A stretch of 64,000 nt of DNA from an uncultured Desulfospira sp. (GCA_963663165.1 OY760175.1:5440001-5504000), one strand, 5' to 3'; counted from the stretch's first letter, positions 1-42,377 are shown. A program made the numbers and translations. Notes: generated by a model from the letters alone, not told the origin.

Positions 1-912
1 CTCTTTTGACTCTTTTTGGGCCAGGGTCTCAAATGAATACCAGTCCAACCGGGTATTGCCGAAGCTGTCAACCCCGGGGGGCACCCCGGTAATCAGTTCA
101 AATACGGAGACCGCCAGGGTGTACACATCCACGGCCGGACTTAAAAACATGGCCTGGTCGTGCCGCAGCTCCGGCGCACAGTATCCCGGTGTTGTGGTGA
201 TGCCGCCCACAAGTCGGCCATCGACCTTTATGGCAAAACTGCCCATATCAATAAGCACAATCCGTTTGTCTTGAGTCAGCAGGACATTATCAGGCTTTAA
301 ATCACAATAAAAAAATTCAAACAACCTGCCGCCGCTTTTATAAGGCTGATGAAAGCGGGAAAGCACATTGGCAATGCTTCGAATATAAAACTGTGCAAAT
401 CCCAGGGGATTGCTTTTAATCTGGGGATGTTCCGGTTTTACAGGGCCGCCGGAAAAATAATTGATGACAAGGTAAGATTCCTTTGTGTACAGTTCCGGCT
501 CTGCGTAAAAAGAATTCCCTGCCTGGTCAGTGTGGGGGCCAAACAGGTCAGGATTGATATCGGTGATAAGATCGAGAGGGACCGGGATGTTGGGAATTCC
601 CCTGGCCCATCCATGTCGCATGGCACCGAATTCACGGTCCAGTGCCTTGCGTCTGAAGGGGATTTCGTTGAGTCGGTGTTTGTCATTTTTGTGTTCAAAC
701 AGGACCGGTTCATAAAGGCAGCGTTTGATCAGCACTTTTTTGTTGTGTAATTGCGTGTCGTTTGCGATAAAAATGACGCCCATACCGCCTGCAGCCAGGA
801 TATCACGGATTTTATAGCGGTTGTCCAGCATGCGTGGCACCTGAAAACGCCGACCGTTAAGATTCAGAACTGCAATCTCCCTGTCCAGGGCTGAATTAAA
901 GGAAAATTTCAT
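1..912 (-). CDS. Hanks-type Ser/Thr protein kinase (3' end outside the window; absent from the ORF track)
   Basis: Manual translation from ATG 912: MKFSFNSALD...RYKIRDILAAGGMGVIF (Gly loop)...KVLIK...YCDLKPDNVLL (catalytic loop)...LIDMGS...TPGYCAPE...DVYTLAVSVFELITG. The frame is open to base 1. Confidence 0.92.
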   Translation of the reverse strand, partial: MKFSFNSALDREIAVLNLNGRRFQVPRMLDNRYKIRDILAAGGMGVIFIANDTQLHNKKVLIKRCLYEPVLFEHKNDKHRLNEIPFRRKALDREFGAMRHGWARGIPNIPVPLDLITDINPDLFGPHTDQAGNSFYAEPELYTKESYLVINYFSGGPVKPEHPQIKSNPLGFAQFYIRSIANVLSRFHQPYKSGGRLFEFFYCDLKPDNVLLTQDKRIVLIDMGSFAIKVDGRLVGGITTTPGYCAPELRHDQAMFLSPAVDVYTLAVSVFELITGVPPGVDSFGNTRLDWYSFETLAQKESKE

Positions 913-913
913 C

Positions 914-1942
914 TCAAACCTCCACAACAGTCAGAACCAGGTCTGCCACGCTGATCCGGCCGCCTGCTTTCAATACAGCGGTCTGGCCGGGAAATAGATC
1001 CTGGCCTGCATATTCCACACGGTGGGAGCCAATGTTTTTCATCATCAGATATTCTCCGCTTATCCAGATTTTTAAATGATTTCTGGAAATAGCCTGTGTC
1101 TGGCTGCTGAACTGGCCCAGGTCAAGATCCACCACCTTCCCGGATCTGCTTTTTTTCCCTACAAGCAGGCTTCTGGCCGGGGGAATGGGAATCGTACGGT
1201 TGTGCCCACTGATTTCAAGCCCGCAGGCCACAGTGGTTTTTGGCCACTCTTTTGGGGGACCATCCTGCTCCTGGGAATGGGAAGCTTTTGCGCTTCCGGT
1301 TTCAGGAGGCTGTACCGGCATCAACGGCTGTCCGGAATTTTGATCTGGCATCTTTATTTGTTTCGGCCGGGGTGCTGCCTTAGGCGGTTTTGCCGGATCA
1401 GGTCCGGACCGGTCTTTGGCCGGTGCAACGGACTGAATCAGGATTTCCTGTTCAGCCCGGTCTGCAGGTTGGCAGCAAAGGGTATAAATGCCGGAAGGCA
1501 GGTTTTCGATATATACACCGCGGGCGGTCACGGTCAGGTGGTTGTCAAACCCGGGATCGGAAAATGACCACAGGGTGTTTGCCGGCAATTGCGCTGTGCC
1601 GGGAATCTCCAGCCTTTCCCCGGGTGCGGTTTTCAGTACCCCGGGCATGGGAAACGTATCAGCACCGGAAGGCGTCTGTACGGCAGCGTCCCTTGCCTGA
1701 CTGTCCTCTTCCCGGCGAATTTCAATTTTGATTTCCCCGGATTCACCGGTCTCCTCCACAGTATACCGCAGGACTCTTTGGGGATTTGCCAGGGCCGGGG
1801 GCTCTGGGGTGAGCCTGATTCCCTTTGCTGTAATCCCGATATCCATATGGGCGTCATTGTCAATCTCCCATTCCAGATTTCCGGACAGTCCGGACGGAGA
1901 AGCAATAAGGCAGGATTGGTTGACATAGATTATTTCAGCCAT
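914..1942 (-). CDS. FHA domain protein (C-terminal FHA after a Pro-rich linker)
   Basis: The C-terminal LLVGKK...DLDL...AISRNHLKI...MMKNIGS resembles the FHA G-R/S-x-x-H motifs; adjacent to the kinase. Confidence 0.75.
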   Translation of the reverse strand: MAEIIYVNQSCLIASPSGLSGNLEWEIDNDAHMDIGITAKGIRLTPEPPALANPQRVLRYTVEETGESGEIKIEIRREEDSQARDAAVQTPSGADTFPMPGVLKTAPGERLEIPGTAQLPANTLWSFSDPGFDNHLTVTARGVYIENLPSGIYTLCCQPADRAEQEILIQSVAPAKDRSGPDPAKPPKAAPRPKQIKMPDQNSGQPLMPVQPPETGSAKASHSQEQDGPPKEWPKTTVACGLEISGHNRTIPIPPARSLLVGKKSRSGKVVDLDLGQFSSQTQAISRNHLKIWISGEYLMMKNIGSHRVEYAGQDLFPGQTAVLKAGGRISVADLVLTVVEV

Positions 1943-1952
1943 AAATGAACTC

Positions 1953-3269
1953 CTAGTAGATTGGGGTGTCAGAATATTGGCTTGAATGAATCCTGGACCT
2001 TACTGACGACCTTGAAGAGGTATAGGCGATATCATTGAGATCCGCCTGGGTAAGGTTCTGGTCCCTCATCAGTTTGTTTTTCATCTCCCTGAATCCTGTG
2101 GCCTTGTCGTAATCTCCGATTTGTTCCGCCAGTGAGGCCATAGCTTCAAGGCGAAGTGCTGCCTCATCGTATTTTTTCTGATCGATGAGCTTGAACACTT
2201 CATTCTGGTTAACCAGTATCTCAATATCTTTGTATCCGGCATCAATGCTGGAGTCCATGATCTCTTCGGCAGAAGTGTCGGCAAAATTCAGATAAAGCGG
2301 CAAATCAACTTCTTTTCCGGCAATATTCCGGCTGGGGCAGTCAAAATGAATGACGGCCCTGCCAATTTTCATGCTGGCAGTGTCCGGGGTGTCCAGGGTG
2401 AAATCAAAGAGGAATTCCTTGAATCCCTGCTGTTCAATATCCCCGGCATTAATTTGCACCAGGGTGCCTTTATCACTTTGATGAATAAAATCGTGCAGGT
2501 TTTTCTGCTCAGGTTCGTGCATATAAAAATGGACATCCCTGACCATGTTTTCCAGGTGAATATTGATGAACACCTTTTTTAAAAACAGGTTGGATAACTG
2601 GGTGTAAATCTGGGAGAATACTTTGGGTGCAGGCATGTTGGGGGTGATGTTTTCGGTCAGGGACCCTGAAAAATCTGAAAACTGCTTCATAAAATCAAAT
2701 TTAAACGTCTCCCCGATCCCCATGGCATCGGTTGTAATCCCGGACTGCGCCAGGGCTTTGCAGGTCTCAAACGCCTTTTGATTATTCCCGGTATAGGCAT
2801 GGCCGTCAGTTAGAAAAATAAGTTTGTAATGGCCTTTGGCTCCTTTGCTTGTGACGGATCGGGCCATATTCATGGCAGCTTCGAAATTGGTTGCACCGTT
2901 ATCTTTCAAATAGCTGTCCAAAGCGGTTATTAAAACAGATTTTGCCCCGCCCGGGGCATGATCGGCATGGACAATGGCCTGGGAATTAAATGACACCAGG
3001 GTCACCGTATCCTGGGTTTCCACCTGTTCAAACAGGGTCTGGACAGCCTGGAACACCGCATCCCGTTTGATCATGCCGGTATCGTAATACGCCTCGTCCA
3101 TGGACGCGCTGCTGTCCAGCAGAAAAACCAGGTTGGTTTTTTCTTTCTGCAAGGGGTTTTCCCGGGTTCCGGCCAGGATCTGCAGCCTGGCCCTGACAGT
3201 TTGATCCATCTGGTTTTTGATTATTCTGTCCCGGTTGAACTCAAGCGCTGTTTCCAGTTCGTATCCCAT
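1953..3269 (-). CDS. von Willebrand factor A domain protein
   Basis: MIDAS motif FLLDSSASM, GATNFEAAM and LIFLTDG; helical C-terminus. Confidence 0.9.
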   Translation of the reverse strand: MGYELETALEFNRDRIIKNQMDQTVRARLQILAGTRENPLQKEKTNLVFLLDSSASMDEAYYDTGMIKRDAVFQAVQTLFEQVETQDTVTLVSFNSQAIVHADHAPGGAKSVLITALDSYLKDNGATNFEAAMNMARSVTSKGAKGHYKLIFLTDGHAYTGNNQKAFETCKALAQSGITTDAMGIGETFKFDFMKQFSDFSGSLTENITPNMPAPKVFSQIYTQLSNLFLKKVFINIHLENMVRDVHFYMHEPEQKNLHDFIHQSDKGTLVQINAGDIEQQGFKEFLFDFTLDTPDTASMKIGRAVIHFDCPSRNIAGKEVDLPLYLNFADTSAEEIMDSSIDAGYKDIEILVNQNEVFKLIDQKKYDEAALRLEAMASLAEQIGDYDKATGFREMKNKLMRDQNLTQADLNDIAYTSSRSSVRSRIHSSQYSDTPIY

Positions 3270-3287
3270 ATGTCCTCCCTTCTGGCT

Positions 3288-5000
3288 TTAATTCTGTGGT
3301 TTTTTCTTTAATTTTACCCATGGTTTCTTTTCTTCGGCACTCATGGTTGAATCCGGCCCCGGCCCGGTTTTGGACCTGGGCTCCCCGGTATCCGGCATTT
3401 GTTCGGCCCGCCGGCCGGTGAGGACCACCAGGGTAATGTTATCAACCCCGGCGGCCTCATCCGCCGCACGGCCCATTTGTCTGGCAATTCCGGCCGATGT
3501 ATTGTCATGGGAGGCCGCCCGGGTAAAGGCCTTTAAAATGTCCTGTTCGTTTTCAAATTCATTCCGGGTGGTGCCCAGGCTGTCAATGAGCCCGTCGGTT
3601 GCGGCGATAAAAGATGCTCCCGGTTCTGGATACAGTTCAATAAAAGAGATCTGATCATCCGGCCGGACCGGGATATATTTTTTACTTTTGCTGTCCAGTT
3701 CGGCCAGGGGGATAACCCGGTCCAGGTGGCTGTCATTTTCTTCACCCCCGAAGGCCGGGAGGGCCGGGTTGTCTATATAGGCTGCAATCCGCCGGGCCAG
3801 GATGTTATGCTCTTCATTGAGTCGCATAAGCCGGCCCCCGGCGATGTAGAAAATGTGGGAGTCTCCCAGGTGGCCGAATACGGCCCGGTTTTGGTTTACC
3901 ATGCCCAGGATTATGGTGGCGCTCATGGGCAGGGCTTCCGGAGATACTCTTTTGATGTCGGCTTCCCGGTTCAGACGTTCCGTACATGTCTGGTTGATAT
4001 CGGCCATCAGTTCAATGATTTTGCTGCGGCATGTTTTCATCCACAGCTCTGATGCCTCTTTCCCGGTTTCTTCCATAAATGCCAGAAGCTCTTGTTTTTT
4101 AAGTTCCAGGGTTTCCATGATCAGGTTGGCGATCATTTTACCGTTTCCAATATCTGCCGCAGATACCCCGTCCGATACCATGACCAGCATTGATTTTTTG
4201 TCTGGTGTTGCGATCAGGTGGTAGGCATCCTCATTTTGCACAGCCTTTTTCTTTCTGCCCTGTTCTGTATGAAATCCCGCATCCCATACCAGAGCACAAA
4301 CCGGGGCCGGGACACAAACGGAATTTGTTTGTGCCTCAAAAAGGCCGGTAACGATTTCCCGGCAGGTGCCGGGCGTATGGGCATTGTGAAAAATCGACCT
4401 GAGCCTGTATTTTTCTTCAGGCAGCAGGCCCAGTTTCATCAGGGCCACGGCAAGCCAGTGTTCAGGGGAAAGCCGGGTAAGGGGAGGAAGCTGGGGATAG
4501 AGCATCTTCACCATAAACCGGACAAAGGCCTCCCGGGTCATTGCAGGGCTGATCATGTCCGGCTTAATCATCCCCGAGTTGAGCCGGGGGGGCAGATCCA
4601 GGTTATAAGCCTGTTTCACACCGGACGGAATGCGCTTTGCATCCGTTGCCGTATACGCGTCAAACTCAAACCAGTCGACAACTATCTGGTCTTTTTCCGT
4701 GATAAACAGTTTGTCATGGGGAATGATAAACCAGAACCGGTTGTTCTCCGCCATCCGATCCAGAAAGTCAGCAAGCAGGAGAAACAACCCCTTCCGATCT
4801 TCGGATCCTGTGCAGGCTTCCAGGCGTTCTTTGAACAGGGAGATCTCCAGGTCAGGGTCATTAATTATGCTTTCCCGGGGGATGCCTTCCGTTTTCTGAT
4901 AGTTGGAAATGCCGTATTCAAGCAGCAGGTCATCTGCCTCACCGGTACTGTCCTGTGATGTTTCAGCCAGATTCCTCTTGAAAAAATCTTTAAACTTCAT
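3288..5000 (-). CDS. PP2C/PPM-family phosphatase with an N-terminal extension (possible degenerate kinase lobe)
   Basis: PPM motifs QNEDA, VSDGV, SATI, GHLGDS, ATDGLID and GVDNITLVV in the C-terminal ~330 aa. Confidence 0.88.
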   Translation of the reverse strand: MKFKDFFKRNLAETSQDSTGEADDLLLEYGISNYQKTEGIPRESIINDPDLEISLFKERLEACTGSEDRKGLFLLLADFLDRMAENNRFWFIIPHDKLFITEKDQIVVDWFEFDAYTATDAKRIPSGVKQAYNLDLPPRLNSGMIKPDMISPAMTREAFVRFMVKMLYPQLPPLTRLSPEHWLAVALMKLGLLPEEKYRLRSIFHNAHTPGTCREIVTGLFEAQTNSVCVPAPVCALVWDAGFHTEQGRKKKAVQNEDAYHLIATPDKKSMLVMVSDGVSAADIGNGKMIANLIMETLELKKQELLAFMEETGKEASELWMKTCRSKIIELMADINQTCTERLNREADIKRVSPEALPMSATIILGMVNQNRAVFGHLGDSHIFYIAGGRLMRLNEEHNILARRIAAYIDNPALPAFGGEENDSHLDRVIPLAELDSKSKKYIPVRPDDQISFIELYPEPGASFIAATDGLIDSLGTTRNEFENEQDILKAFTRAASHDNTSAGIARQMGRAADEAAGVDNITLVVLTGRRAEQMPDTGEPRSKTGPGPDSTMSAEEKKPWVKLKKKPQN

Positions 5001-5571
5001 TGATGCGTTCCCTCAGCATGGTAATGGTTTCCTGTTTTTTCCGGGTCATGATCCTGATTTTATCCTCCAGTCCTGAGATCATGTCGGCACACTGCACAAG
5101 CTCCCGGGATACCTCGTCCATGTTCCGGCCCATATACTCCAGGGTTTTAAATTTCCCGGCCAGGGTTTCCAGTTCCGGTCCGGGGATGTGGAGCTGATAG
5201 GCCAGTTTTTCAATCTGCCCCAGCACTTCAGCCCGGTCTTTGAGTTCGGACAGGGGTTGGTCTGCTGCGTTGTACTCCTGTTCCAGGGCGCTGTTCTTTG
5301 ATTTCAGGGCGGCAATTTCCTGTTGACGTTCAGCCAGAAGGGCAGCCTGATTTTCAGCATGATCTGACAACGTCTTTGTTCGGGTCAGCAGCAGGTATTT
5401 GACCAGGGAGACCACCGGTTCTATCTGCCGGTCCAGGCCGGGACCCGAAACCCGGGTCAGGTCGGGCAGTGTTTTTATGCAGTGGGCAATGATGCCCAAA
5501 AGGTAATCTGCCTGTCCGTTTTCGTTCAAATGTGCTGTCTTTTCATCAATCTGTGAGGGTATCAGGTCCAT
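4990..5571 (-). CDS. Coiled-coil hypothetical protein
   Basis: Heptad-rich 193-aa ORF overlapping both neighbours. Confidence 0.7.
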   Translation of the reverse strand: MDLIPSQIDEKTAHLNENGQADYLLGIIAHCIKTLPDLTRVSGPGLDRQIEPVVSLVKYLLLTRTKTLSDHAENQAALLAERQQEIAALKSKNSALEQEYNAADQPLSELKDRAEVLGQIEKLAYQLHIPGPELETLAGKFKTLEYMGRNMDEVSRELVQCADMISGLEDKIRIMTRKKQETITMLRERINEV

Positions 5572-8057
5572 TCAGTTTCCACCTTTTTAATATGGGCCGG
5601 TGTGATGCATACCGTGTGTGCATCCAGGTCCGCGTCGGCCACGGCAGCCCCTTTTAGTTTTTCAATAAAACTTCTGACAAAGCGGGCATTGGCAAAATTG
5701 TTTCCCTCAATTGTGCGTATCCGTTCAAAAACCGGGATAAGCATCTCAGCTTTAAGCAGGCTAAAATCATATACGGCCCCAATGCCGGAGGTTTTCAAAA
5801 AAAAGATCTGTGCCAGTTCCTCAGCAGAATAATCCGGAAAGTCCAGAATCCGGTCAAACCGCCCTCTAAGCCCGGAATCATGGTCAAAAAGCGCTGTTAT
5901 CTTGTCAGGATACCCGGCAAAAATCAGGCAGAGCCGGCTGCGGTTGTCCTCCATGAACGGAAGAATGGTATTAAGGGCACTTTCTCCATAAGAACTGCGG
6001 TTCGGCCCCGGTGCGAGTTGATGGGCCTCGTCAATGAACAGCACCCCGTCCAGGGACTGATTCAGAATCCGGTTTGTTCTGTTTTCGGTTTCTCCCTGGT
6101 ATTGTCCTATTAGCTGCGAGGCTGTATGGGCATTGAGCTTTGCAGAATTTAAAAGTCCCATGCGAAAGAACTGCTTTGCCATCTGCCTTGCTGCAATGGT
6201 TTTGCCTGTACCCGGGCTTCCCTGGAAAATGTAGTGGCCGGGGACAGTTTTTTCTTTTTCCAGGCGGGCCTGCTTCTCAAAATTCACCAGGAACCCTTTT
6301 ATATTTCCAAGTCCGACAAGGGTGTTGATGTCGTCCTCCTGCTGCCGGCGAGCTTCAAACAGCTTTGGCATTTCAAAATGTGATGTGGACAGGGTTGGGG
6401 AAGAATTTGCCCTGGCGTTCTGCAGGGCTGTTTCAATCTGATTGATTACCACACCGGCATTGCCGAAATGATTTGCACCAAACAGTTCCCTTTGATCCAG
6501 CAGATTGGTGCAGAACAGCGTGACTTTTTCCTTAAGGTCGGCTTCCGGATGCAAGGGACTGTTATTGAGGTGCTGCATCATGATTTCAGCCAGCTCCTGT
6601 GCGGAATAATCAGGCAGGTCAATATATGATATCCGCCTGGCACATCCGGGATTTGTATTCAGCATGGCCCGTGTTTCATCGGGATAACCTGCAAAGATAA
6701 CCATGAACCTGCCTTGAAAATCGGACATGGCCTTTACCAGTTCGGCCAGGGCTTCAGTGCCGAAACTGTCCCGGTCATCATTGACCAGTTCATAGGCCTC
6801 ATCAATAAAAAGTACACCTCCCAACGCTTTTTCCACCAGGGCTCTGGTTTTTCCGGCTGACTGGCCCATGTATCCGGCCACAAGTTTTTCACGGGTGGCC
6901 TCAACCATGTGACCGGATTCCAGGAGTCCCTCTTCCTTTAAAATCTTTCCTATGAGCCTTGCCACTGTTGTTTTTCCGGTGCCGGGATTTCCTAACAGCG
7001 CCAGATGGGGGATGGCCGGCAGGGTTCCGGCCTTGATCCGCCGGAACCGGTCAGGGGTCAGCGGCTGATCCGATTCAAATTCAGGTGTTTTCTTTTCAAT
7101 CCCCCGGACCAGCCGGGTGACGGTCTCTTTAACCCGGGTCAGGCCTGTCATGGAACGAAGCTGGTCAAAGGCTGCGGGCATGCCTGATTGAAGTCCGTAA
7201 ACCTGTCGGAGGTGATCGAAAAACGCTTCTTCTTCACCCATGTACTGCACCAGATTTTTTATGGACTCTCCACGATGGCGCATGGCACCGGCAACGGAGG
7301 GGGACAGGCTGTCAAAATCATTGAAGGCCGGGACACATCCTTTTTCCAGTCCGTGAAGTGCCATGGCCCTGAAAACTTCATCCCGGCCGGCCGTTTCCAC
7401 CCGGACCACCCGGGCCGATCCCGAGGCTGCCCTTTTGCCGGGTTCCAGAGAAAAAACAAAATCCAGGCCAAGGCGCATGAACCGTCTTGCCACGGAAGCC
7501 TCATCATCTCCGTCCACCCAGATCCAGATATTTCTGCAGGCACCGGGCAGGGAAAAAATACTGTTTCTGAGCAACCCCTGGATCTGTATTCCAATATCCG
7601 ATGCCGGGGGCAGCTTTTCAAACAGGGCACCGTCATAAACCACAAAGGCCAGGTGCCGCCCGGGATCAGAAAGATGGGCTGTCATAAACTGGGCAATCTC
7701 ATTAATGTCCCCGTCATAGGTATACCTTAACCGCCCCCGGGGAGTGCTTGGGCTTTTGGACGGGGGGGATTTCATGGTAAGGCCCATGGGGGCGTGCTTG
7801 AGTTTATCCAGACCCTTGGCCGGGCGATGCGTTTTCTTTTCTTTGCGGGATCTGAGGTGGTCAAGGCTATGGGCGTCAAAATAGTAAAGTCCCCTGGCAT
7901 CCAGAAAGGCCACTGCTTTATACCCCAATTCACAGGTGAGATACCAGTAAAGGTAATGGTCAAGCTGGATACGGGAATTGTCCTTTAAGATAAACTCATC
8001 CCGGACATGTCCGAGAATAAGAAACAGGCGGTCCGCGTAGTTTTTTAACGCTTTCAT
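5562..8057 (-). CDS. Tandem AAA+ ATPase, CbxX/CfxQ/SpoVK-like
   Basis: Two modules, GNPGTGKTT...VLFIDEAY and GSPGTGKT...VLFIDEAH, each followed by IFAGYPD and GNA/ANAR motifs. Confidence 0.9.
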   Translation of the reverse strand: MKALKNYADRLFLILGHVRDEFILKDNSRIQLDHYLYWYLTCELGYKAVAFLDARGLYYFDAHSLDHLRSRKEKKTHRPAKGLDKLKHAPMGLTMKSPPSKSPSTPRGRLRYTYDGDINEIAQFMTAHLSDPGRHLAFVVYDGALFEKLPPASDIGIQIQGLLRNSIFSLPGACRNIWIWVDGDDEASVARRFMRLGLDFVFSLEPGKRAASGSARVVRVETAGRDEVFRAMALHGLEKGCVPAFNDFDSLSPSVAGAMRHRGESIKNLVQYMGEEEAFFDHLRQVYGLQSGMPAAFDQLRSMTGLTRVKETVTRLVRGIEKKTPEFESDQPLTPDRFRRIKAGTLPAIPHLALLGNPGTGKTTVARLIGKILKEEGLLESGHMVEATREKLVAGYMGQSAGKTRALVEKALGGVLFIDEAYELVNDDRDSFGTEALAELVKAMSDFQGRFMVIFAGYPDETRAMLNTNPGCARRISYIDLPDYSAQELAEIMMQHLNNSPLHPEADLKEKVTLFCTNLLDQRELFGANHFGNAGVVINQIETALQNARANSSPTLSTSHFEMPKLFEARRQQEDDINTLVGLGNIKGFLVNFEKQARLEKEKTVPGHYIFQGSPGTGKTIAARQMAKQFFRMGLLNSAKLNAHTASQLIGQYQGETENRTNRILNQSLDGVLFIDEAHQLAPGPNRSSYGESALNTILPFMEDNRSRLCLIFAGYPDKITALFDHDSGLRGRFDRILDFPDYSAEELAQIFFLKTSGIGAVYDFSLLKAEMLIPVFERIRTIEGNNFANARFVRSFIEKLKGAAVADADLDAHTVCITPAHIKKVETEWT

Positions 8058-8058
8058 C

Positions 8059-8625
8059 TTATATTTCTCCGGAAACCAGGGTCCGGGTCTTTAAAGGGGG
8101 AATCCCGCAGAAAAAAAGTCCGTCCATGTTTACATCCACCTCAAGGGTGCGTGGTCCAAACAAGAAGGCCTCTTTTTCCGTGATATACCTGTCGGTTAAA
8201 AAAAGAACCCGTTGGTTTTCCGATCCCCTCAGGCCCCGCCCCCTGTTTTGCTTTTCCAGGTAGGGCCCGCAGATAACCACATCGCAAAGTTCTAAAACCC
8301 GATTAAAATTCATTTCAATTTCCTGATAACTGAATCCTGTGTAAAGTATGATTCCCATTTCATTTTTTCCGGCACATGCCATTAAATCCAACACGTCATA
8401 GTACTGGACCAGGGGTTCACCGCCTGAAATGACCAGCCCCCTGGTTCCGGCCTTTGAAAGAAAGGCGGCCACCTGTCCTTTGCCAATTTGCCGGCCGCCA
8501 TCCATGTCCTGCCATTGTGGCGCAATGCAGCCCGGGCAAGACCTGGGACAGCCCTGGAACCAGACAGCGGATTTCACGCTTTTTCCAAAACTTCCGGTAT
8601 GGGCTTTCCAGGCAGCAATTCGCAT
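8059..8625 (-). CDS. Short radical SAM / 4Fe-4S protein, NrdG-activase-like
   Basis: VWFQGCPRSCPGC (CxxxCxxC), ISGGEP, YTGF, DVVICGPY and RGSENQR. Confidence 0.88.
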   Translation of the reverse strand: MRIAAWKAHTGSFGKSVKSAVWFQGCPRSCPGCIAPQWQDMDGGRQIGKGQVAAFLSKAGTRGLVISGGEPLVQYYDVLDLMACAGKNEMGIILYTGFSYQEIEMNFNRVLELCDVVICGPYLEKQNRGRGLRGSENQRVLFLTDRYITEKEAFLFGPRTLEVDVNMDGLFFCGIPPLKTRTLVSGEI

Positions 8626-9767
8626 CAGACCTTCCTTTCCCGATACCGGGCCAGATCAAAAAAATGTTCCTCGGCCGGGCGGTTTTCATACCCTCTCACC
8701 GTGGCGTAATCCTTTGCCCCCACTGCAGCCATAATCCCTTCCAGACGCTGGGCGTGGGTCAGGGGATCCAGGGTGTTGAAATCGACTTCCATGGAAAGTT
8801 CATCCGCCTCCTCGCCAATGTTCACCAAAATTTTTTCCCCCCGTTCATTTTCCATGAGCAGAATATTGTTAAGGCGCGGGTCATCTTCCTGGAAAAGATT
8901 ATCTACCACTTCAAAGCCCCGGCGAACCATCTTCTCAGCAATATCTGACTGTAGATCCATTTTACGGATATAGCGGATAAAGGCGCCTTCCGCAGAGAAC
9001 CCGGCATGGTTTACCCGGTCAACAACCGTATCAAGCAGACGTTCCAGTTCCTTCATCTGATCCAGATTCATCCTGCCAAGCCCGGTTTTCAGTTTTCGGG
9101 CGTTTTCAAATTCCTGTTTTGCCGCCAGCCACTCTTTTTCCGCCCAGAGGGGAATCTCAATGTCAACCACCTGGTTCGCCCCCTGTTTTGTGGAGAATTC
9201 CCGTTTTACAAGGGTGATGTTCATCATCTTTGCAACCTGGTCAAAGCTGTCGTTCAATTCTATTTCAAGGGCCTGTCCTTCAATACAGGTCTGTTCAATC
9301 CCGGGGACATCCCGGGCCAGCAGGGTATGCCAGTTCTGGGCCAGGGCCGTACACGCCTGGTACTGCCCGTTTTGCAGATTGGCTTCCATATTCCGGATCT
9401 GGTCGGTATAGGTTCCGAATTCCCGGGGAAAAAATCGTTCCATCTCCATTTTCTCAAGCGCCTGATATAATTCTTTTACCAGGTTCAGGCTATGTTCGGC
9501 AAACTCCCTGCTGTCCCTTTCCTTCTGTTCCAGGGTGCCGATCCTGCCTGAAATCCGGTCAATGGCCTGTTTCTGCTCCCGGATTCCGGACTCGGCCGCC
9601 CGGATGCTTTTTTGAGCCTGCTCCAGCCTGCCGGACAACTTCCTGTTTTCTCTTTCCTGCCGGTCAATATGGTTGCGAAGCTTTTTAATTTCCAATCGTC
9701 TGAATATGTAGTCAATCACTTCGGCCGGAACTGCCGGCTGTTTTCTTCCACTCATTTTGTCCTCCAT
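8625..9767 (-). CDS. Coiled-coil hypothetical protein, first gene of the kinase operon
   Basis: 380-aa ORF with a long N-terminal coiled coil; its stop overlaps the next start. Confidence 0.75.
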   Translation of the reverse strand: MEDKMSGRKQPAVPAEVIDYIFRRLEIKKLRNHIDRQERENRKLSGRLEQAQKSIRAAESGIREQKQAIDRISGRIGTLEQKERDSREFAEHSLNLVKELYQALEKMEMERFFPREFGTYTDQIRNMEANLQNGQYQACTALAQNWHTLLARDVPGIEQTCIEGQALEIELNDSFDQVAKMMNITLVKREFSTKQGANQVVDIEIPLWAEKEWLAAKQEFENARKLKTGLGRMNLDQMKELERLLDTVVDRVNHAGFSAEGAFIRYIRKMDLQSDIAEKMVRRGFEVVDNLFQEDDPRLNNILLMENERGEKILVNIGEEADELSMEVDFNTLDPLTHAQRLEGIMAAVGAKDYATVRGYENRPAEEHFFDLARYRERKV

Positions 9768-9890: not shown

Positions 9891-10665
9891 TTTTCAATCC
9901 TCTCTAATCGAGGCGGTGTTTCTAACTTTTCGGTGTGGTTGTTGTCAACACACTTTCCGTCTAGAAAAGTCTCAATCCTCTCTAATCGAGGCGGTGTTTC
10001 TAACCTGCCATGAAGGCTGAAAACGAAGCCAAACGTGCGGCTGTCTCAATCCTCTCTAATCGAGGCGGTGTTTCTAACAGCGAATCCCAGCAATGTTTCT
10101 TATGTCGCCGATACCGTCTCAATCCTCTCTAATCGAGGCGGTGTTTCTAACTTGGTATATGTATTTCAAGAAGGATGATGAGCCAGGATGTCTCAATCCT
10201 CTCTAATCGAGGCGGTGTTTCTAACAAAATAAACACTTTTCCGAAAAACTTATTCCTATTTGTCTCAATCCTCTCTAATCGAGGCGGTGTTTCTAACAGC
10301 GAATCCCAGCAATGTTTCTTATGTCGCCGATACCGTCTCAATCCTCTCTAATCGAGGCGGTGTTTCTAACTTGGTATATGTATTTCAAGAAGGATGATGA
10401 GCCAGGATGTCTCAATCCTCTCTAATCGAGGCGGTGTTTCTAACAAAATAAACACTTTTCCGAAAAACTTATTCCTATTTGTCTCAATCCTCTCTAATCG
10501 AGGCGGTGTTTCTAACCGTGAAAAGGGCCGTCAAGGCTCAAAGAACCAGGGGTCTCAATCCTCTCTAATCGAGGCGGTGTTTCTAACGTTGGGGTGATGC
10601 CAAATTGGTATTTCGATGCCCCAGATAATGTCTCAATCCTCTCTAATCGAGGCGGTGTTTCTAAC
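9891..10665 (-). CRISPR. CRISPR array 1: 11 repeats (GTTAGAAACACCGCCTCGATTAGAGAGGATTGAGAC) and 10 spacers of 35-42 nt
   Basis: 36-bp repeats start at 9891 (degenerate, trailer end), 9969, 10043, 10116, 10190, 10262, 10335, 10409, 10481, 10552 and 10630. The CCTC/GAGG hairpin and ATTGAGAC 3' end give minus-strand orientation. Confidence 0.98.
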
Positions 10666-11339: not shown

Positions 11340-12452
11340 TTAAATAAGCTTTAGCCGGACATTACCATTGCGTCCAAACCAGGTATGCCCTGGATAATGG
11401 AAAACCCTTGGATCTGCGGGATCCCATACCAGAACTTTTCTCAGTTGATCCATTGCCGGGCAATGATCCCTAACGAATTGTCTGATTCTATACTCAATTT
11501 CTCTGGCTAAGCGGTCGCAGGAAAGCGTGGCGTTTCCATTTCCATTATTGCTGTCCAGTGGCGCAAGTGTAAGGAACCGTGAGGCCGGGTCCGCAAAAAT
11601 GGTTAATGATTCTATTCTGATATGGCAGCTTCCCATCCCCATGGGTTTAGCATTGCCGATTTTATGCCTGAGCGGCCCGTTCAGCCGAATCCGATTTTCT
11701 TCCCCCCCAATGGTGACCTGAACATCTTCCTCCAAAATTAATATATAAATAAGGAGATCAAGTTCTTCATCCCGTAAATTGGAAAAGGTTATATCAAATT
11801 CAAAGCGATGCCCCGGTGTGAGCGCGGGCACGGTCCATGCGCGATCTGCCAAATTATTAGGGATGCCGGGAAAGTTAGTGTTGATCCCAGGCTGGTGAAA
11901 ATAAAATTTCCTGCACCGCCCATCAAAATCCCCTGTATGCGGCGAGATATAAAAAGAGCGATGAGTGCTTTTAGGACCGTTGAGCAGGACTTGATAGTTC
12001 TGAGTCTGTGCGTTCTCCGCCTGGATAACGGCATCACTGATACTGACCTTGCCTGTATGCACCTTTGCATTTGCGCGCTGTTCCATCATGCCGAACATTC
12101 TGCAGGCCACACAAAGGCTGGTGACTTGATCGCAGCTTTTGAAGTCATTGTGGCAGTTTCGTCCGTTTTTATCCGTGACAAAACAGCCCCCCCCCACAAC
12201 TTCGGCAAGGGAGCGGAGCATTCCTTTTAAAGAGCTGCCCGGAATAATATGTTTGCGATCTCTGGTTAAAAATGTTCTGGGGTTGCCTTCATTGTTTTTT
12301 GCAATAAATAAAGGGGTTAAATTTTCCAAGGTGCAGGTCAGTTTCCCGCTTTTTCCTTGGAATTTTTCATGGGTGACCGGCGGCATTCTGTTTATAACCT
12401 CCCGGACCGGAACCATCCTGTACGGATTCCAAAAGTGTTCTCCCTGGGGCAT
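11340..12452 (-). CDS. Type III-D terminal Cas7-group RAMP (TIGR03986-like, short insertion), module A
   Basis: FWNPY, LENLTPLFI, IPGSSLKGMLRS, RKFYFHQ and G-rich loop HKIGNAKPMGMG. Confidence 0.85.
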   Translation of the reverse strand: MPQGEHFWNPYRMVPVREVINRMPPVTHEKFQGKSGKLTCTLENLTPLFIAKNNEGNPRTFLTRDRKHIIPGSSLKGMLRSLAEVVGGGCFVTDKNGRNCHNDFKSCDQVTSLCVACRMFGMMEQRANAKVHTGKVSISDAVIQAENAQTQNYQVLLNGPKSTHRSFYISPHTGDFDGRCRKFYFHQPGINTNFPGIPNNLADRAWTVPALTPGHRFEFDITFSNLRDEELDLLIYILILEEDVQVTIGGEENRIRLNGPLRHKIGNAKPMGMGSCHIRIESLTIFADPASRFLTLAPLDSNNGNGNATLSCDRLAREIEYRIRQFVRDHCPAMDQLRKVLVWDPADPRVFHYPGHTWFGRNGNVRLKLI

Positions 12453-12964
12453 CAGACTCCTCCTTTGGTTTCTTTTAGCGAATGATACCGGCTGAACCTG
12501 GCATCACCCGATGCATCAATCCATTTTTCAACCACCAGTTTAATGCGTCCTCTGGGATATTGGTTTTCTGTGACAGGATATTTAAATTCCACAGGAACTT
12601 GTTGTTCGATCCACCTGTTTTCCTTCTCCGTAAGAACACCCCATAAAAAAAATTCACCTGTCTCCCGCTCAAGCTGGTCAAGTTCTTTTGAACAATTCTC
12701 CAGCCCCTCGGGCGGAAGTGATTCTCCAAGATAGACCAGGCGAAGTTTTTCTCCCATACGGCGCCACTGCAGTTCACTTTCCGGTGAAAAGATTCGGCCC
12801 TGGGCACTTTTTTCCAACACAATTTTTTCCAGAGCGCTTTTTTCAAATATAAACCGGTCGGGATAGAACACAATTGATACGCAGGGTTCTTTACGCTTCA
12901 CCCGCCTGACAAATGCCCGGGCTTCTTCCTCCACAAGGTCTTTTGAAAAAAGATAGGCCATCAC
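12452..12964 (-). CDS. csx19: Csx19-like subunit, module A
   Basis: GRIFSPESELQWRR and FFLWG; typical III-D position before the terminal RAMP. Confidence 0.75.
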   Translation of the reverse strand: MMAYLFSKDLVEEEARAFVRRVKRKEPCVSIVFYPDRFIFEKSALEKIVLEKSAQGRIFSPESELQWRRMGEKLRLVYLGESLPPEGLENCSKELDQLERETGEFFLWGVLTEKENRWIEQQVPVEFKYPVTENQYPRGRIKLVVEKWIDASGDARFSRYHSLKETKGGV

Positions 12965-13953
12965 GCCCTCCTTTCATTTAATTGCTCCAGAGCAACGGGC
13001 CATTCACTTGTTTGAATCATTTGCACCAGATCATCCACGGCTAGGGCAAGATGGTCTTTCCAGCCCCTGGTGATATCGTATTCGTTTCTAAGACTCAGTC
13101 CCAGTTTAGAGCTTGAGGAAAGAGATGGGCCGTTTTGACCGGTTTCCTGAAAAAATCCGTATGACTGACAAATATCCTCAGAGCAAGCAGCACCCAGGCC
13201 GGTTAATGAGGAGAGCCGGCGGTGGTAGGAGGTGATTTGAAACCGGGTAATCCGGGCTTTGAACCTTCCTAAGCCTTTGCTCTTTCCGAAACCGATACGA
13301 AGTTTCTCCTCCTCCATTTCCTGCAATATCAGTCCAAGGAGACCTAACTGCCACCGTTCAAAATTACGAATCTCTATGGATGTGGAAAATTCCCCCCGGG
13401 TCAGCACTTCAAAGTCATACAGTGCCCCGGGAACAGTTCCCCCGGTAAACCGGTCAATGGCCACGCCGTTTCGAACCTCAAAGACAGGAGATCCTACCGC
13501 CCTGAATTCATCAGAGAGGCCGGCATCTGAAACAGCGCATCTTCCGATAAATTCATGGGATCCAAACATACGGCAGACAGGGCATGAAACCCGGTAAGCT
13601 GTGGCTGACGGGACACGCTCCAGACCATGATCTTTTTTATATTTTTCCAGCATCAAACCGCATGACGCCTGGCGCTGCTCCCGGGGATCCCTGCTGCCGG
13701 GTTTTAAATAGGGCAGACACACTGGAACCGGATCCTCTTTCAACGTCCTGCAGATTTTTTCCGCATACGATCGAATCATTCCTTTTAATGAGCTTCCCGG
13801 GATAAAAGGTTCTTCTTTGCCGCCGTGCCGGTGGGTACGGACAAACGCCATGTCGACCCCGGCCACAGTTGCCTGGCCGGACTTAATTAATAACGGGTCG
13901 ACAGGGATAATGGTCAACTCTATGAGGGCATTGTTGATCAATTGTTTGAGCAT
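12961..13953 (-). CDS. csm3: Cas7-group RAMP (Csm3-like), module A
   Basis: PFIPGSSLKGMIRS, CPVCRMFGS, VAIDRFTG and IGFGKSKGLG. Confidence 0.88.
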   Translation of the reverse strand: MLKQLINNALIELTIIPVDPLLIKSGQATVAGVDMAFVRTHRHGGKEEPFIPGSSLKGMIRSYAEKICRTLKEDPVPVCLPYLKPGSRDPREQRQASCGLMLEKYKKDHGLERVPSATAYRVSCPVCRMFGSHEFIGRCAVSDAGLSDEFRAVGSPVFEVRNGVAIDRFTGGTVPGALYDFEVLTRGEFSTSIEIRNFERWQLGLLGLILQEMEEEKLRIGFGKSKGLGRFKARITRFQITSYHRRLSSLTGLGAACSEDICQSYGFFQETGQNGPSLSSSSKLGLSLRNEYDITRGWKDHLALAVDDLVQMIQTSEWPVALEQLNERRA

Positions 13954-13954
13954 A

Positions 13955-14761
13955 TCAGTCTCCTTGTTTCATGGTGGCGGCCAGTTTCTCTTCCAGACAT
14001 TTTCCTAAAAGGTCGCGGGCCGGTGTCATCTGTTTTTCCACCAGGTATTTGATCAGCTCCGCTGGATTGGTATAATCCACGGATTCTACTTCTATGTCCG
14101 TCAACTGTACCTTTCCAAGCCCTCGGGATGAAAATCCCCCCAATTTAAAACCGTTTTCCCACTCCGCCAAAGCGGCACCAACCAGGGCAAGTTCATCATT
14201 CTCCGGATTTTCGATCTCAATGGTAATCTGAAAGGAGGCGCCGGCCGGCACCACTTCGTAGTCAAATTTGGCTTTGGGGCGGGCAGTTTCCGTATCCCGG
14301 TCAATGCAGACGCCGTCACGGATGCAAATGGCAGTCCCCCCTTCAACGGGAATACCGTCACTGAAAAAGATGCGGGATGCCATCATGGGGGAACCAAATA
14401 GTTTACATACATCGCAGGTGTGGGTGTCCAGCCAGTCCAATTGCTCTTTCCCGGCCCGGAGCGCCTTAAAGGCCTCCTGATTTTTTCGTCGAAAGGGCTC
14501 ATCACTGACACAATCTACTTTGGAAAGGGAGGTATCCAGCAAACATGCGGTCATGTCCAGATGGGGCGCCAGACGCTCGGAAAATGCCCTGAAGTTTCCT
14601 TTCAGGGTCGATCCCGGCAGGACAGGGTTTCCATCCGGATCAAGCAGAACCCCCATATCCGTGGACAACGCCCCCTCTTGTCCCGATCCGATATGAAAGG
14701 CCGTGTGAAACGTCAATTTTGCCGTAATTTTTACTTTTTGAAAATATGTATTATAAGTCAT
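13955..14761 (-). CDS. csm3: Cas7-group RAMP (Csm3/Csx7-like), module A
   Basis: FHIGSG, LPGSTLKGNFR, CDVCKLFGS, CIDRDT and LGGFSSRGLG; start moved to ATG 14761 (AGGAGA RBS). Confidence 0.88.
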   Translation of the reverse strand: MTYNTYFQKVKITAKLTFHTAFHIGSGQEGALSTDMGVLLDPDGNPVLPGSTLKGNFRAFSERLAPHLDMTACLLDTSLSKVDCVSDEPFRRKNQEAFKALRAGKEQLDWLDTHTCDVCKLFGSPMMASRIFFSDGIPVEGGTAICIRDGVCIDRDTETARPKAKFDYEVVPAGASFQITIEIENPENDELALVGAALAEWENGFKLGGFSSRGLGKVQLTDIEVESVDYTNPAELIKYLVEKQMTPARDLLGKCLEEKLAATMKQGD

Positions 14762-14762
14762 G

Positions 14763-15278
14763 TTATTCTCTCCTTTCTGGGGGGCTGACGCTGTTGAGTG
14801 CGGCGCAATAGGCATAATGCGAGGTAAGGTGTTCGCAATATACAGACAGGACTTTGGAAATGGCCGAATCAATTTTGTTTTTATTCATTTTTTTGATTTT
14901 ATTTCTGAGCGGTTTGTCATCCCCTGCGGATATTTCGTCTTCAAGAAAAGAGGCCAATTGGTCTTTAACCGCCATGTACAGGCAGTCGCGGCTCTCTATT
15001 GTGCGCGATATCTGGTTGGACATAAAATTCCAAAACACCTTTTTTTTCTCATTTGAATTTTTTTGCCTTTGATGATCAATCAGTCTGGTAAGGGCATTTT
15101 TCCCCCCTGACTGAATAGCGGCGGGAATGCTGTGAAGCTGGGAAGTCGTTATAAAATCTTTGGCTCCGTAATTGCCGCATAGTTCTTCCACAGCTTCACA
15201 GGCGTGGTCCCGCAGGGTTTTATCCAGAAACAGGTGAAATGCGTCTGAGTTTAGATATGCTTCATATGCCTTGTCCAT
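14763..15278 (-). CDS. Small alpha-helical protein, probable second Cas11-like subunit
   Basis: 171-aa helical ORF embedded in the effector operon; its ITTSQLHSI segment recalls the Csm2 'xxxQLR' motif. Confidence 0.5.
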   Translation of the reverse strand: MDKAYEAYLNSDAFHLFLDKTLRDHACEAVEELCGNYGAKDFITTSQLHSIPAAIQSGGKNALTRLIDHQRQKNSNEKKKVFWNFMSNQISRTIESRDCLYMAVKDQLASFLEDEISAGDDKPLRNKIKKMNKNKIDSAISKVLSVYCEHLTSHYAYCAALNSVSPPERRE

Positions 15279-15681
15279 GATGCCCGGCCTCCTCCTGGTT
15301 TAGCTGCAATTTATATAAGCAGTGAAAAATAACTTGCTTGCCCCATCCTCTGGCCAGTTTCATTTTGATATCAAGAACAAGGGATGGGTCCCCGCTGCCT
15401 ATCTCCTGGGCCTTGACCTCCAATGCTTCCAGTTGGCGGATCACCCCTGGTGCCACCCGGATCCATGTTGTTTTTTTGGTATCCTTTGCCGCCTGGTTTT
15501 TAATGTAATTGATAATTTCAGAAAACCGGCTGGTGGAAGTGATCAGTGTTTCAAGCCCGCGCAGTTGTGTTTTTCCCAGCCCCACCGCAGCCAGTTCATC
15601 TCCCATCTGTTTTGAATCACCATAAATTTGTTCGAGAAAGAGATCAATTTCTCTGGAGATTGTTTCATTGATGTGTGTCAT
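15262..15681 (-). CDS. csm2: Cas11/Csm2-like small subunit, module A
   Basis: LGKTQLRGL...IINYIKNQAAK helical pattern; follows csx10; start ATG 15681 overlaps the upstream stop. Confidence 0.65.
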   Translation of the reverse strand: MTHINETISREIDLFLEQIYGDSKQMGDELAAVGLGKTQLRGLETLITSTSRFSEIINYIKNQAAKDTKKTTWIRVAPGVIRQLEALEVKAQEIGSGDPSLVLDIKMKLARGWGKQVIFHCLYKLQLNQEEAGHHGQGI

Positions 15682-16865
15682 ATCCTCTCCCTGGTGTGTA
15701 ATGCATCGCAAATTGATATTTGACCAAATCCCTGTTCTTTCCTCAAACCGACACCGTTAATCAAAAGCGGTTCAAGAAATCGTTGTAATTTTCCAGGAGA
15801 ATCCCCTGTATATTTAAACAGATATACGCTTCCCATGGAAACACCGATGTCATCATTTCTGGCAAGCCCCATGGCGGCCTGCCACCCCCGTATTGTCTGT
15901 GTACTGGTGATTTGGGTAACCGGTCGGATATCCGGGTGCCGGAATTCTTCGATTTCCAAGACCGGCCGCAAAAAACGATCTACAAAAACCGCATGGGACT
16001 CAAGGGTCACACTGAAAAAGATCCCCTGGCCGGTTGATTCAGGTTTTAAAGGCATCAATTTTGATAATTTTTCTGTAAACGCATTGTGCCACGACTGGAT
16101 AGCCTCAGCAGATCCGGTTGGAAGTCTTTTGTCGTCAACAGGGGCCAAGGTGAGTTTGATTTCTCCAAATCCTCTTGTCCGGTCTGCACCAACAAAAATA
16201 GTGTTTTCAAGCAAAGGAGTTAAACAATTTACCTGCTCCTCGTTTAAAAACAGTTGCCCGCTAAGGTGCTGCCGGGAATAGAGATCCTGCCCTTGATCCG
16301 AATGTTTGTAAAAATCGGCTATGGATTGCGTGATAAAAAACATGGCGTTGGCAACCGTCCCTGTTGACCGGTCAATACCGGTATGACGGTTCACCAGGAT
16401 ATCCGGTTCAAACGCTTCAGGCGTATCCAGATTGCCGTTCCAGAAACCGGAAAAGGGTTTCATATCTTCTCCGCAGTTCGGGCCGGGGCATTTCCAGATT
16501 GCTTTATCCGGCGGTGTGCCGCCAATACGACTGGCTGCTGTAGCAGCAAGTGTGTCAAACACGCCATGTTGATCAAATCCAGGCTCCCGCTTACACGAAA
16601 TCAGGGTTGCTGGTAATATCCGCGAGTAATCCTGAGGGCCTTTCCCGGGTAAAAGGTTGCAGAACCGTACCGGATTCTCCAGAAAAAGGGTACGAAACGC
16701 ATCATCTTCCGCATTTTTGCCTTCCCTTAGATAACTTGCAGCCAAAGCCCCCCGCAAGGTGCCGCCGGGAATATAATTTAGCGTTTGAGGGGAACTGTTC
16801 CGGCGATCCTGCTGGATGATCAGCGGTGATAGCAGCTTTGCCGTCATGCGATAGTAAGTATTCAT
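15678..16865 (-). CDS. csx10: Csx10 (Cas5-group RAMP), module A
   Basis: YIPGGTLRGALA, HTGIDRSTG, VGADRTRGFG and C-terminal GVGLRKEQGFGQI. Confidence 0.85.
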   Translation of the reverse strand: MNTYYRMTAKLLSPLIIQQDRRNSSPQTLNYIPGGTLRGALAASYLREGKNAEDDAFRTLFLENPVRFCNLLPGKGPQDYSRILPATLISCKREPGFDQHGVFDTLAATAASRIGGTPPDKAIWKCPGPNCGEDMKPFSGFWNGNLDTPEAFEPDILVNRHTGIDRSTGTVANAMFFITQSIADFYKHSDQGQDLYSRQHLSGQLFLNEEQVNCLTPLLENTIFVGADRTRGFGEIKLTLAPVDDKRLPTGSAEAIQSWHNAFTEKLSKLMPLKPESTGQGIFFSVTLESHAVFVDRFLRPVLEIEEFRHPDIRPVTQITSTQTIRGWQAAMGLARNDDIGVSMGSVYLFKYTGDSPGKLQRFLEPLLINGVGLRKEQGFGQISICDALHTRERI

Positions 16866-19151: not shown

Positions 19152-19224
19152 AAGACCTCCAATCTTTACTTTGACTACGGAATTCAATAGGCGTCCTTTA
19201 AAATTATTTTTCGAAATAAGTGAC

Positions 19225-19455
19225 TCAAAAGACAATCGAACCTTTCAAAAGGGAAATCTGCCATTCGTTAAAATCCGGCAGTTTTTCAGGGATGATGTCC
19301 AGATTTGGGACCTCAAGGTAAGTTTTTATGCAGGACGACAGGGTGCCGTCCATATCCCCGGCGTCCACACGGGCCAGGGCATGGTTAAAAAAATCCGCTA
19401 CCAGGTTGATATCCTCAAAGATCCGCTCCAGGCTGCCCGTTGCAATCAGGTTCAT
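19225..19455 (-). CDS. Hypothetical protein, 76 aa (MNLIATGSLE...)
   Basis: ATG 19455 overlaps the TGA of the reconstructed upstream gene (ATGA coupling). Confidence 0.55.
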   Translation of the reverse strand: MNLIATGSLERIFEDINLVADFFNHALARVDAGDMDGTLSSCIKTYLEVPNLDIIPEKLPDFNEWQISLLKGSIVF

Positions 19456-21339: not shown

Positions 21340-21389
21340 ACTAGTTTGGACGGACCCAGTCAGCTTGGAGATAAAGCTTTTGAGCAGTT

Positions 21390-22643: not shown

Positions 22644-22657
22644 TAAAAGCAGTCCTT

Positions 22658-25162: not shown

Positions 25163-25221
25163 TTTTAAAAACCTCTCCTGGTTACGCCGGGTAAAAATCT
25201 CGCAGCAGGCAGGACGCCGTG

Positions 25222-36173: not shown

Positions 36174-36175
36174 GG

Positions 36176-37561: not shown

Positions 37562-37562
37562 T

Positions 37563-40997: not shown

Positions 40998-41036
40998 GAT
41001 GTGCCCTCCTGTTCGGATTTAAAAATGAAAATTCAT

Positions 41037-42266: not shown

Positions 42267-42377
42267 TCATCAGCCCCTATTGTTTCCCTTATTTCATGGG
42301 TTGTTTATACTCAAATATGTAAACCAACTCAGATAGTTTACCCTATAAAATCTATTTAACTTTTTGTTTTCATAGGT

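Follow-up and report, generated by a model that had tools for sequence, protein, structure and literature searches.

What does a set of protein-phosphorylation genes do at the trailer end of a type III-D CRISPR array? This question is raised by a 64,000-nucleotide stretch of DNA from an uncultured Desulfospira sp. (GCA_963663165.1 OY760175.1:5440001-5504000; the whole stretch is called the window below), in which eight genes at positions 1..9767 encode coiled-coil, radical-SAM, AAA+, PP2C, vWA, FHA-like and Ser/Thr kinase proteins. An earlier note, made from the sequence alone, described them as an operon of eight co-oriented genes with overlaps or gaps below 20 bp, starting about 120 bp past the trailer of array 1. 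Recomputing the open reading frames (ORFs) confirmed this layout: all eight lie on the minus strand at the coordinates of that note, tightly packed with gaps of -1, +1, -10, -11, +18, +10 and -14 bp from Gene A to Gene H, and 123 bp separate the degenerate repeat of the array from the ATG at 9767. The extent of the operon was however underestimated. The kinase, of which the window holds the first 309 residues, is 789 aa long, and past the left window edge the operon continues on the same strand with genes for a histidine kinase (HK), a receiver protein (REC) and a PIN-like protein (gaps of -26, +13 and -29 bp from Gene H to Gene K), followed by an overlapping cas2. The block totals eleven genes. 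We find that it is probably functionally linked to type III CRISPR systems, and that its conserved CRISPR-linked core is HK-REC-PIN, usually joined by the kinase, FHA-like and vWA genes. The genes are as follows; L001 denotes segment G000:C1:5422001-5442000 of the source genome, G000.

Gene A, 8625..9767, minus strand: soluble coiled-coil/helical-bundle protein with a C-terminal alpha/beta domain; no Pfam name.
Gene B, 8059..8625, minus strand: NrdG-like radical-SAM protein, 188 aa.
Gene C, 5562..8057, minus strand: SpoVK/CbxX/EccA-like AAA+ protein with two intact ATPase modules.
Gene D, 4990..5571, minus strand: coiled-coil protein, 193 aa.
Gene E, 3288..5000, minus strand: PP2C phosphatase, 570 aa; N-terminal region without assigned domain.
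Gene F, 1953..3269, minus strand: vWA protein, 438 aa; DxSxS motif at 52.
Gene G, 914..1942, minus strand: 342 aa; degenerate FHA-like domain at the C terminus.
Gene H, 1..927 (part in the window; whole gene L001:16558-18927), minus strand: Ser/Thr kinase.
Gene I, L001:15216-16583, minus strand: soluble HK, 455 aa; TPR-like N-terminal half, HATPase.
Gene J, L001:14225-15202, minus strand: REC, 325 aa; second REC-like domain.
Gene K, L001:13537-14253, minus strand: PIN-like predicted RNase, 238 aa.
cas2-like gene, L001:13226-13549, minus strand: in-frame stop; overlaps the PIN stop codon; identified from its translation, with no profile scan.
14-repeat array, about L001:12053-12995: past a leader downstream of the broken cas2.

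The evidence for the CRISPR link comes from the neighbourhoods of HK-REC-PIN homologues. The module is rare. Genomes with a REC profile match numbered 4 among 401 from the class, 2 among 401 from the phylum and 2 among 232 from the phylum to which G401 belongs; the HK profile matched in 5 of 341 genomes of the order. A metagenome scan gave 23 rows, of which the 6 strong ones were used; the other 17 (L015-L031, E 2e-6 to 2e-4) matched in the receiver domain only and were left out. Merging of near-identical copies (L012 into G985, REC 100% identical; L010 into G401, REC 97%) and grouping of L014 with L010/G401 on visual likeness only left 11 lineages, which are kin and not independent; no P value is given. 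A type III gene or array adjoins the module in eight of these 11 lineages, across two phyla, an outcome in line with the earlier note, which had proposed such a survey.

The individual loci differ in gene order, and REC identity between compared lineages is 22-52%. In the source genome an array precedes the block, and cas2 and an array follow it. G033 carries the whole block in another order, 174 bp after an 18-repeat array, with cas10 94 bp after the block and a full III-D locus. In G985, a member of another phylum, the genes from AAA through PIN are followed by csx20 and cas10, while PIN is followed by cas6 in L010/G401 and by a CRISPR-type reverse transcriptase (RT) in G013. In L013 a CARF-deaminase is followed by PP2C, FHA, vWA, kinase, HK, REC and two PINs. 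In two lineages module genes lie inside a III-D cas operon: G315 has HK-REC-PIN alone between cas7 and cas5, and G1090, which turned up after type III linkage had been predicted, shows the order cas6-vWA-cas10...cas7-FHA-kinase-kinase-like gene-HK-REC-PIN-cas2-RT-cas1-very long array. These two loci weaken the earlier suggestion of a system standing alone in the island. Taken together, the CRISPR link of the HK-REC module is strong.

Two side observations concern these loci. The deaminase gene of L013 (L013:1-1776) encodes a CARF-adenosine-deaminase effector directly upstream of the block, and the second PIN there is degenerate. The array of G1090 comprises roughly 350 repeats (L090:10241-20000, L092:1-16700), past the RT-primase-like gene and cas1.

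The block is layered, because its coiled-coil/radical-SAM/AAA+ part also occurs without CRISPR while HK-REC-PIN is present in all CRISPR-linked loci. Kinase, FHA and vWA genes accompany HK-REC-PIN in most loci (at E<=1e-15 no vWA was found in G013, G315 and G401), PP2C and the unit of Gene A, radical-SAM, AAA+ and Gene D in some. Three CRISPR-linked loci (G315, G1090 and L013) have no coiled-coil/radical-SAM/AAA+ part, and the G1090 block has no PP2C, AAA+, radical-SAM or Gene A. The family of Gene A is broad, with 231 clusters at E<=0.001 and profile matches in 8 of 301 genomes of the class, and was used as a control: cas genes occurred in none of six Gene A loci from five genomes without a REC match, within contexts of 4-39 kb, while a radical-SAM gene lay nearby in four and a CbxX-type AAA+ gene in three. 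The absence of REC was taken from an apparently overlapping sample of 401 class genomes. The control loci were checked by blastp against the Cas proteins of the window and by an array finder, with a PADLOC scan of only four neighbouring ORFs. Of the six contigs four are shorter than 9 kb, and in G258 a repeat of three copies, 16 kb away from Gene A, was not taken for an array. A chance neighbourhood within the island is accordingly rejected for the HK-REC-PIN core, but plausible for the Gene A/radical-SAM/AAA+ part.

The emphasis of the earlier note was thus misplaced, since the CRISPR-linked core lies outside the window and the part that it stressed is optional. Its idea of a phosphorylation-switched conflict system gains from the eight lineages adjoining type III; its radical-SAM step, absent from the three loci named above and occurring also without CRISPR, does not. 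A link to SAM-AMP through the radical-SAM gene was considered and is not supported, the gene being missing from the same three loci. Among the standalone Gene A loci, L078:226-4788 contains an Hsp70-like gene and a 348-aa helical protein; L077:244-10502 has a protein like the latter, of 346 aa. They may represent a further variant of the cassette.

Judged by their sequences, HK and REC carry the hallmarks of a two-component phosphorelay. In HK, H259, N353/N357, D389 and the G-boxes are invariant in seven of seven sequences; its model (pLDDT 87.5) comprises a helical solenoid, a DHp domain with H259 and a HATPase domain, and aligns with solved HKs at Z 16.8 (rmsd 8.5, 189 aligned), the kinase domain dominating the match list. 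In REC, D12, D13, D60, S94 and K116 are invariant in 18 of 18 sequences, and solved receivers are matched at E 9e-8. No DNA-binding domain was found in REC, whose maximum 19-residue hydropathy is 0.99. By language-model features (0.92, fewer than 170 shared features), the closest match of its second domain is the receiver-like wing domain of Orn/Lys/Arg decarboxylases, which serves as a lead only. For PIN, five homologues and the protein of the source genome gave PIN_4/PIN_12 matches (E 4e-5 to 8e-3); D17 and E62 are invariant and the later aspartates largely retained. HK, REC and PIN have no PADLOC match at E<=1e-4. None of the 11 block proteins contains a transmembrane segment, so that the signal is expected to be cytoplasmic; a membrane role for the block was rejected.

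The partner Cas10s bear on what could trigger such a relay. DGN and GGDD are retained in all six Cas10s checked, and an N-terminal HD domain is present in none of seven. We therefore expect these III-D complexes to signal by a messenger, as has been proposed for III-D in the covered part of PMC11229360. The features of the CRISPR region that matter here are these.

CRISPR array 1, about 9891..10665, minus strand: 11 repeats and 10 spacers, 7 of them distinct.
Type III-D module A, 11340..19235, minus strand: upstream of array 1; cas10 with intact DGN and GGDD and no N-terminal HD.
Type III-D module B, 33099..43313, minus strand: csx20, CARF-PD-(D/E)xK and cas6; cas10 with intact GGDD.
CARF-PD-(D/E)xK gene, 41037-42266: within the island in the window.
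Csx1 CARF-HEPN gene, L001:6075-7352: about 11 kb outside the window start.

The earlier note had stated that module A has no adjacent effector of cyclic oligoadenylate. This holds for its immediate neighbourhood, where no CARF gene lies, but the island holds the Csx1 and CARF-PD-(D/E)xK genes. The same note had considered that the operon might act downstream of module A. The survey bears out a linkage to type III-D but not a pairing with module A in particular: the source HK is 41% identical to the HK of G985, which lies beside a module-B-type cas10, and 27% identical to that of G315, inside a module-A-type operon. The module B cas10 shares 68% identity with the cas10 lying after the operon in G033.

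Because the Cas10s are expected to signal, yet no CARF or SAVED gene turned up in the ORFs scanned from the III-D loci of G033 and G1090, we read the block as a type III-D ancillary effector. This reading is tentative, and we put it at less than even probability: recognition of target RNA would feed a phosphorelay and a PIN RNase and lead to arrest of the infected cell. It draws on gene content, CRISPR adjacency, intact catalytic motifs, soluble proteins and the cyclase motifs of Cas10, and we infer every mechanistic step after Cas10. Cas10 would make a cyclic oligoadenylate-type messenger, read by a non-CARF sensor for which the helical N-terminal half of HK and the second receiver-like domain are candidates. 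H259 of HK would hand its phosphate to D60 of REC, and REC, having no DNA-binding domain, would release or activate PIN by contact, whereupon PIN would cut RNA. The Ser/Thr kinase, FHA-like and vWA proteins may form a second gate, which PP2C would reset where present, and the coiled-coil, radical-SAM and AAA+ genes an optional remodelling unit taken over from a cassette that is found without CRISPR too. The portability of the module across divergent Cas10s would favour a diffusible messenger over a fixed contact. To the wider proposition that type III-D is wired to protein phosphorylation we give close to an even chance. According to it, RNA-guided recognition would fire HK via a new messenger-sensing fold or direct contact, the double receiver would unleash the PIN RNase, and the Ser/Thr kinase-FHA-vWA-PP2C layer together with the radical-SAM/AAA+ unit would set the threshold and reset the system.

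Several observations weigh against the ancillary-effector reading. In G1074, HK and a partial REC occur with no cas gene in 15.6 kb. In favour of the reading, however, this sole non-CRISPR copy is a deleted remnant: REC is fused there by a deletion to the last 57 PIN residues, and the second REC domain and most of PIN are lost. In L009 the visible 13 kb hold no cas gene, the upstream view ending inside the operon; L011, with 1.7 kb, is uninformative, and these two lineages cannot be judged. Few lineages were available, several of them on short contigs, and the G1090 bin is 15% contaminated. Profile scans found no CARF, SAVED or other known messenger-binding domain in the operon (no PADLOC or Pfam match to CARF, SAVED, CorA or NucC in the 11 proteins). 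Each of the genomes G000, G033 and G1090 has, at another place, a Csx1-type gene whose product could respond to the messenger in trans, and for this reason the missing local effector is not decisive. The PIN profile matches are mostly below the Pfam cut-off, and the FHA-like protein has no canonical Arg and Asn-Gly residues. The gene downstream of the L009 block presumably resembles an IS21 transposase.

Three other explanations were weighed. Direct coupling in the manner of Craspase is unlikely: the TPR-like half of HK would bind the III-D complex and sense the target by conformation, with no messenger and an unchanged relay to PIN. The module travels with Cas10 groups, three in number, that are only 18-28% identical to each other and keep their cyclase motifs, and in G985 csx20, which we take to encode a messenger-degrading enzyme, sits between PIN and cas10. 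The idea nevertheless fits the position of HK-REC-PIN between cas7 and cas5 in G315, the failure of profile scans to find a messenger-binding domain, and the helical solenoid of the HK N-terminal half, which recalls TPR-CHAT Csx29 binding Cas7-11 (PMC10028731, part covered).

Less probable again is an abortive-infection system in its own right, one that would itself detect phage proteins or stress and share only location and transcription with type III. Such a system would agree with the CRISPR-free occurrence of the coiled-coil/radical-SAM/AAA+ part, with the kinase-PP2C-vWA sets of other conflict systems (PMC7159879, part covered) and with other defence-type genes gathered in the island, for example HipA; but no intact HK-REC-PIN was found in a clearly non-CRISPR setting, the sole copy of that kind being internally deleted, and core cas genes and module genes are intermingled in G315 and G1090. 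Least probable is a regulator upstream of CRISPR, with a relay that senses infection or cell state and tunes type III, for instance through phosphorylation of Cas proteins or those of adaptation, through dismantling of complexes by AAA+, or through trimming or degradation of CRISPR RNA by PIN. In its favour, the gene directly after PIN serves processing or adaptation in several loci (cas2 in G000 and G1090, cas6 in L010, RT in G013), and the operon begins just past an array in G000 and G033. On the other hand, REC has no DNA-binding output, and the gene after PIN varies (cas2, cas5, cas6, csx20, RT or Gene A), which agrees better with insertion into cas operons than with a single fixed target.

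Has a system of this kind been described before? The sources cited here are represented by the parts covered. The type III effectors in them are nucleases, proteases, membrane proteins, NADases and transcription regulators, and an HK-receiver relay is not among them (PMC11229360, PMC12669027). The literature searched yielded no account of HK-REC-PIN modules in type III loci; the parts covered of PMC10936438, PMC11237479, PMC10028731 and PMC13294483 do not describe this block, and the main text of PMC12669027 (Makarova 2025) gave no term match for kinase, vWA, FHA, receiver or phosphatase. A census by Altae-Tran 2023 (PMC10910872) reported vWA-related systems that associate with CRISPR loci alongside kinases and phosphatases, among them entries UAS-7, 87, 91, 100, 129, 139, 149 and 155, with labels in Table S3 such as 'vWA + FHA + PP2C', 'vwa + PPC + kinase system', 'TPR HATPase' and 'Recep domain + 4 unknown genes'. 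Like the block, these modules tie vWA, kinase, phosphatase and FHA genes to CRISPR loci, whereas in the main text of that source the terms histidine kinase, response regulator, FHA and radical are absent and no mechanism is given. Its locus maps (Fig. S14, Data S2), supplementary PDF and Table S1 may cover part of the present system, so an overlap is possible. We provisionally class the block as a type III ancillary module with a new signalling logic, whose vWA/kinase/phosphatase part has had partial prior notice.

TerY triads place an active kinase, a PP2C and a standalone vWA gene side by side. In the covered part of PMC7159879 (Kaur 2020), kinase-PP2C-vWA sets are described in GTPase systems with GAP1-N2 neighbourhoods, which likewise have an active kinase, PP2C and a standalone vWA next to each other. 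In contrast to both, the present block has no GTPase or Ter genes and adds a CbxX-type AAA+, a radical-SAM protein, HK-REC-PIN and the type III linkage. Membership in a vWA-MoxR or Ter group was not found: the ATPase scores with SpoVK/EccA/CbbX profiles, where such systems have a MoxR-clade ATPase, and no Ter gene occurs among the annotated neighbours. Cam2 (Hoikkala 2024, PMC11229360), a predicted type III effector proposed to bind cyclic oligoadenylate, shares a receiver domain in type III loci with our block. According to the part covered it has a transmembrane domain and no partner HK, whereas REC here is soluble and doubled, keeps its phospho-site and comes with a cognate HK and PIN. Type III-E CASP/Craspase (Cas7-11, TPR-CHAT Csx29, Csx30 and sigma; PMC10028731) is similar in that a TPR-type enzyme starts a protein-level cascade in a type III locus; that enzyme is a protease attached to a single-protein effector, as opposed to a kinase beside a multi-subunit III-D complex. 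Finally, the C3a189 kinase of type III-B/D loci, an accessory family with three members in the covered part of PMC6546367 (Shah 2019), matches Gene H over about 80 kinase-core residues of an 840-position profile (E 1.3e-6), which does not establish that they belong to the same family.

If true, the proposed wiring would amount to a CRISPR-controlled two-component system and an RNA-programmable kinase. Should the module respond to Cas10, phosphorylation would be added to the outputs of type III, a new messenger sensor would be implied, and the role of CRISPR-linked vWA, kinase and phosphatase genes, a question raised by the 2023 census, would become testable. The three-gene version inside the III-D operon of G315 and the compact G1090 locus offer small natural constructs, and an RNA-triggered kinase would be a useful signalling tool.

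Of the domains named in the earlier note, profile scans recovered the NrdG-like radical SAM, the double AAA+, PP2C, vWA and kinase, and left the FHA call weak. Gene B matches Fer4_12 (NrdG-like) at E 6.6e-24, with CxxxCxxC at 26-33 invariant in seven of seven aligned homologues. Gene C scores between E 4e-95 and 1e-81 with SpoVK/EccA/CbbX profiles, below the equivalog cut-offs, with Walker A motifs at 356 and 613 and Walker B motifs at 418 and 675; its 290-aa N-terminal domain gave no library match and no PDB sequence match. Gene D homologues occupy the equivalent position in L008, L009 and L044. Gene E matches PP2C_2 (E 4.6e-12) with the motif aspartates present, and Gene F matches VWA_2 (E 2.9e-13). 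FHA phospho-threonine readers combine the FHA fold with conserved Gly-Arg, Ser-x-x-His and Asn-Gly residues. Gene G has no Pfam FHA match, and a profile search reached GarA/OdhI only at E 0.005; in its homologues Ser-Arg is invariant, Gly-Lys/Arg variable and Asn-Gly absent. Gene H matches Pkinase (E 4.8e-15) with the motifs VLIK, DLKPDN and DMG, and in G033 and G1090 its second kinase-like region is encoded by a gene of its own; an NYN-like fold for its C-terminal tail is not claimed, given the absence of a Pfam match and a poor alignment. Each operon gene is single-copy in the genome at E<=1e-15, and the GC content of the operon is 0.498 against 0.500 for the genome. As to read-through from the array, a promoter scan stayed at chance level, and no minus-strand terminator was found between the array 1 trailer and Gene A.

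The annotated start of Gene A is the ATG at 9767, but its homologues begin with MSG, so the true start is probably 9755, giving 376 aa. Structure prediction, as suggested by the earlier note, folded the protein well (pLDDT 92.6) but matched only generic helical bundles: there was no Foldseek match at E<=0.001, to PspA/Snf7 (ESCRT-III) or otherwise, and the best VIA score was Z 10.6 (rmsd 4.1, 111 aligned). In glycyl-radical enzyme/activase pairs the partner carries a conserved C-terminal V-x-G-Y site. The tail residues G355-Y356 of Gene A are invariant in seven close homologues; across the family Gly is found in 60 of 137 and Tyr in 22 of 137, and a tail of the form G-[YTFSA]-E in 49 of 137, compared with a mean of 11 in shuffles. 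A weakly conserved glycyl-radical site in this tail is possible.

The block is flanked by two arrays within a CRISPR region of about 64 kb that contains four arrays of one repeat family and the two III-D modules. Array 1 faces the operon with its trailer, the degenerate repeat being on the operon side, and contains an exact 219-bp tandem duplication of three repeat-spacer units at 10042-10479. None of its spacers is self-targeting except for one 17-nt match. A cas10 search in the fragmented G401 found none, and searches of viral contigs with the REC profile and of plasmids with REC and a Gene A homologue were likewise negative.

Further genes of the region were noted in passing. Downstream of the next array, 6-11 kb past the left window edge, L001:7389-11690 (minus strand) encodes three proteins: a sigma-70-region-4-like one of 349 aa, one of 383 aa, and one of 700 aa that combines a Lon protease domain with a long C-terminal region. 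The trio has no PADLOC match, no SAVED was found in it, and it resembles CalpL-CalpT-CalpS or a CASP-sigma analogue with a different sensor. L001:4077-5706 holds a HipA-like kinase with an HTH partner within the CRISPR region. A TPR protein, a CRISPR-associated primase-polymerase (CAPP type A1) and cas1 lie ahead of a 30-repeat array (L001:691-3759 and L046:19661-20000), and the same trio is found in the III-A locus of G033 at 66-79% identity. Between module A and RT-cas1, window positions 19585-27271 hold an insertion with a Mutator-like transposase, an HTH protein, a VirD4-like ATPase, a small ADP-ribosyltransferase-like protein and a cREC receiver domain. The cas2-like gene occurs in three near-identical copies (31780-33100; L001:13226-13549): one of them looks intact, a truncated one lies next to a PIN toxin-antitoxin-like pair, and the third, with the in-frame stop, follows the operon.

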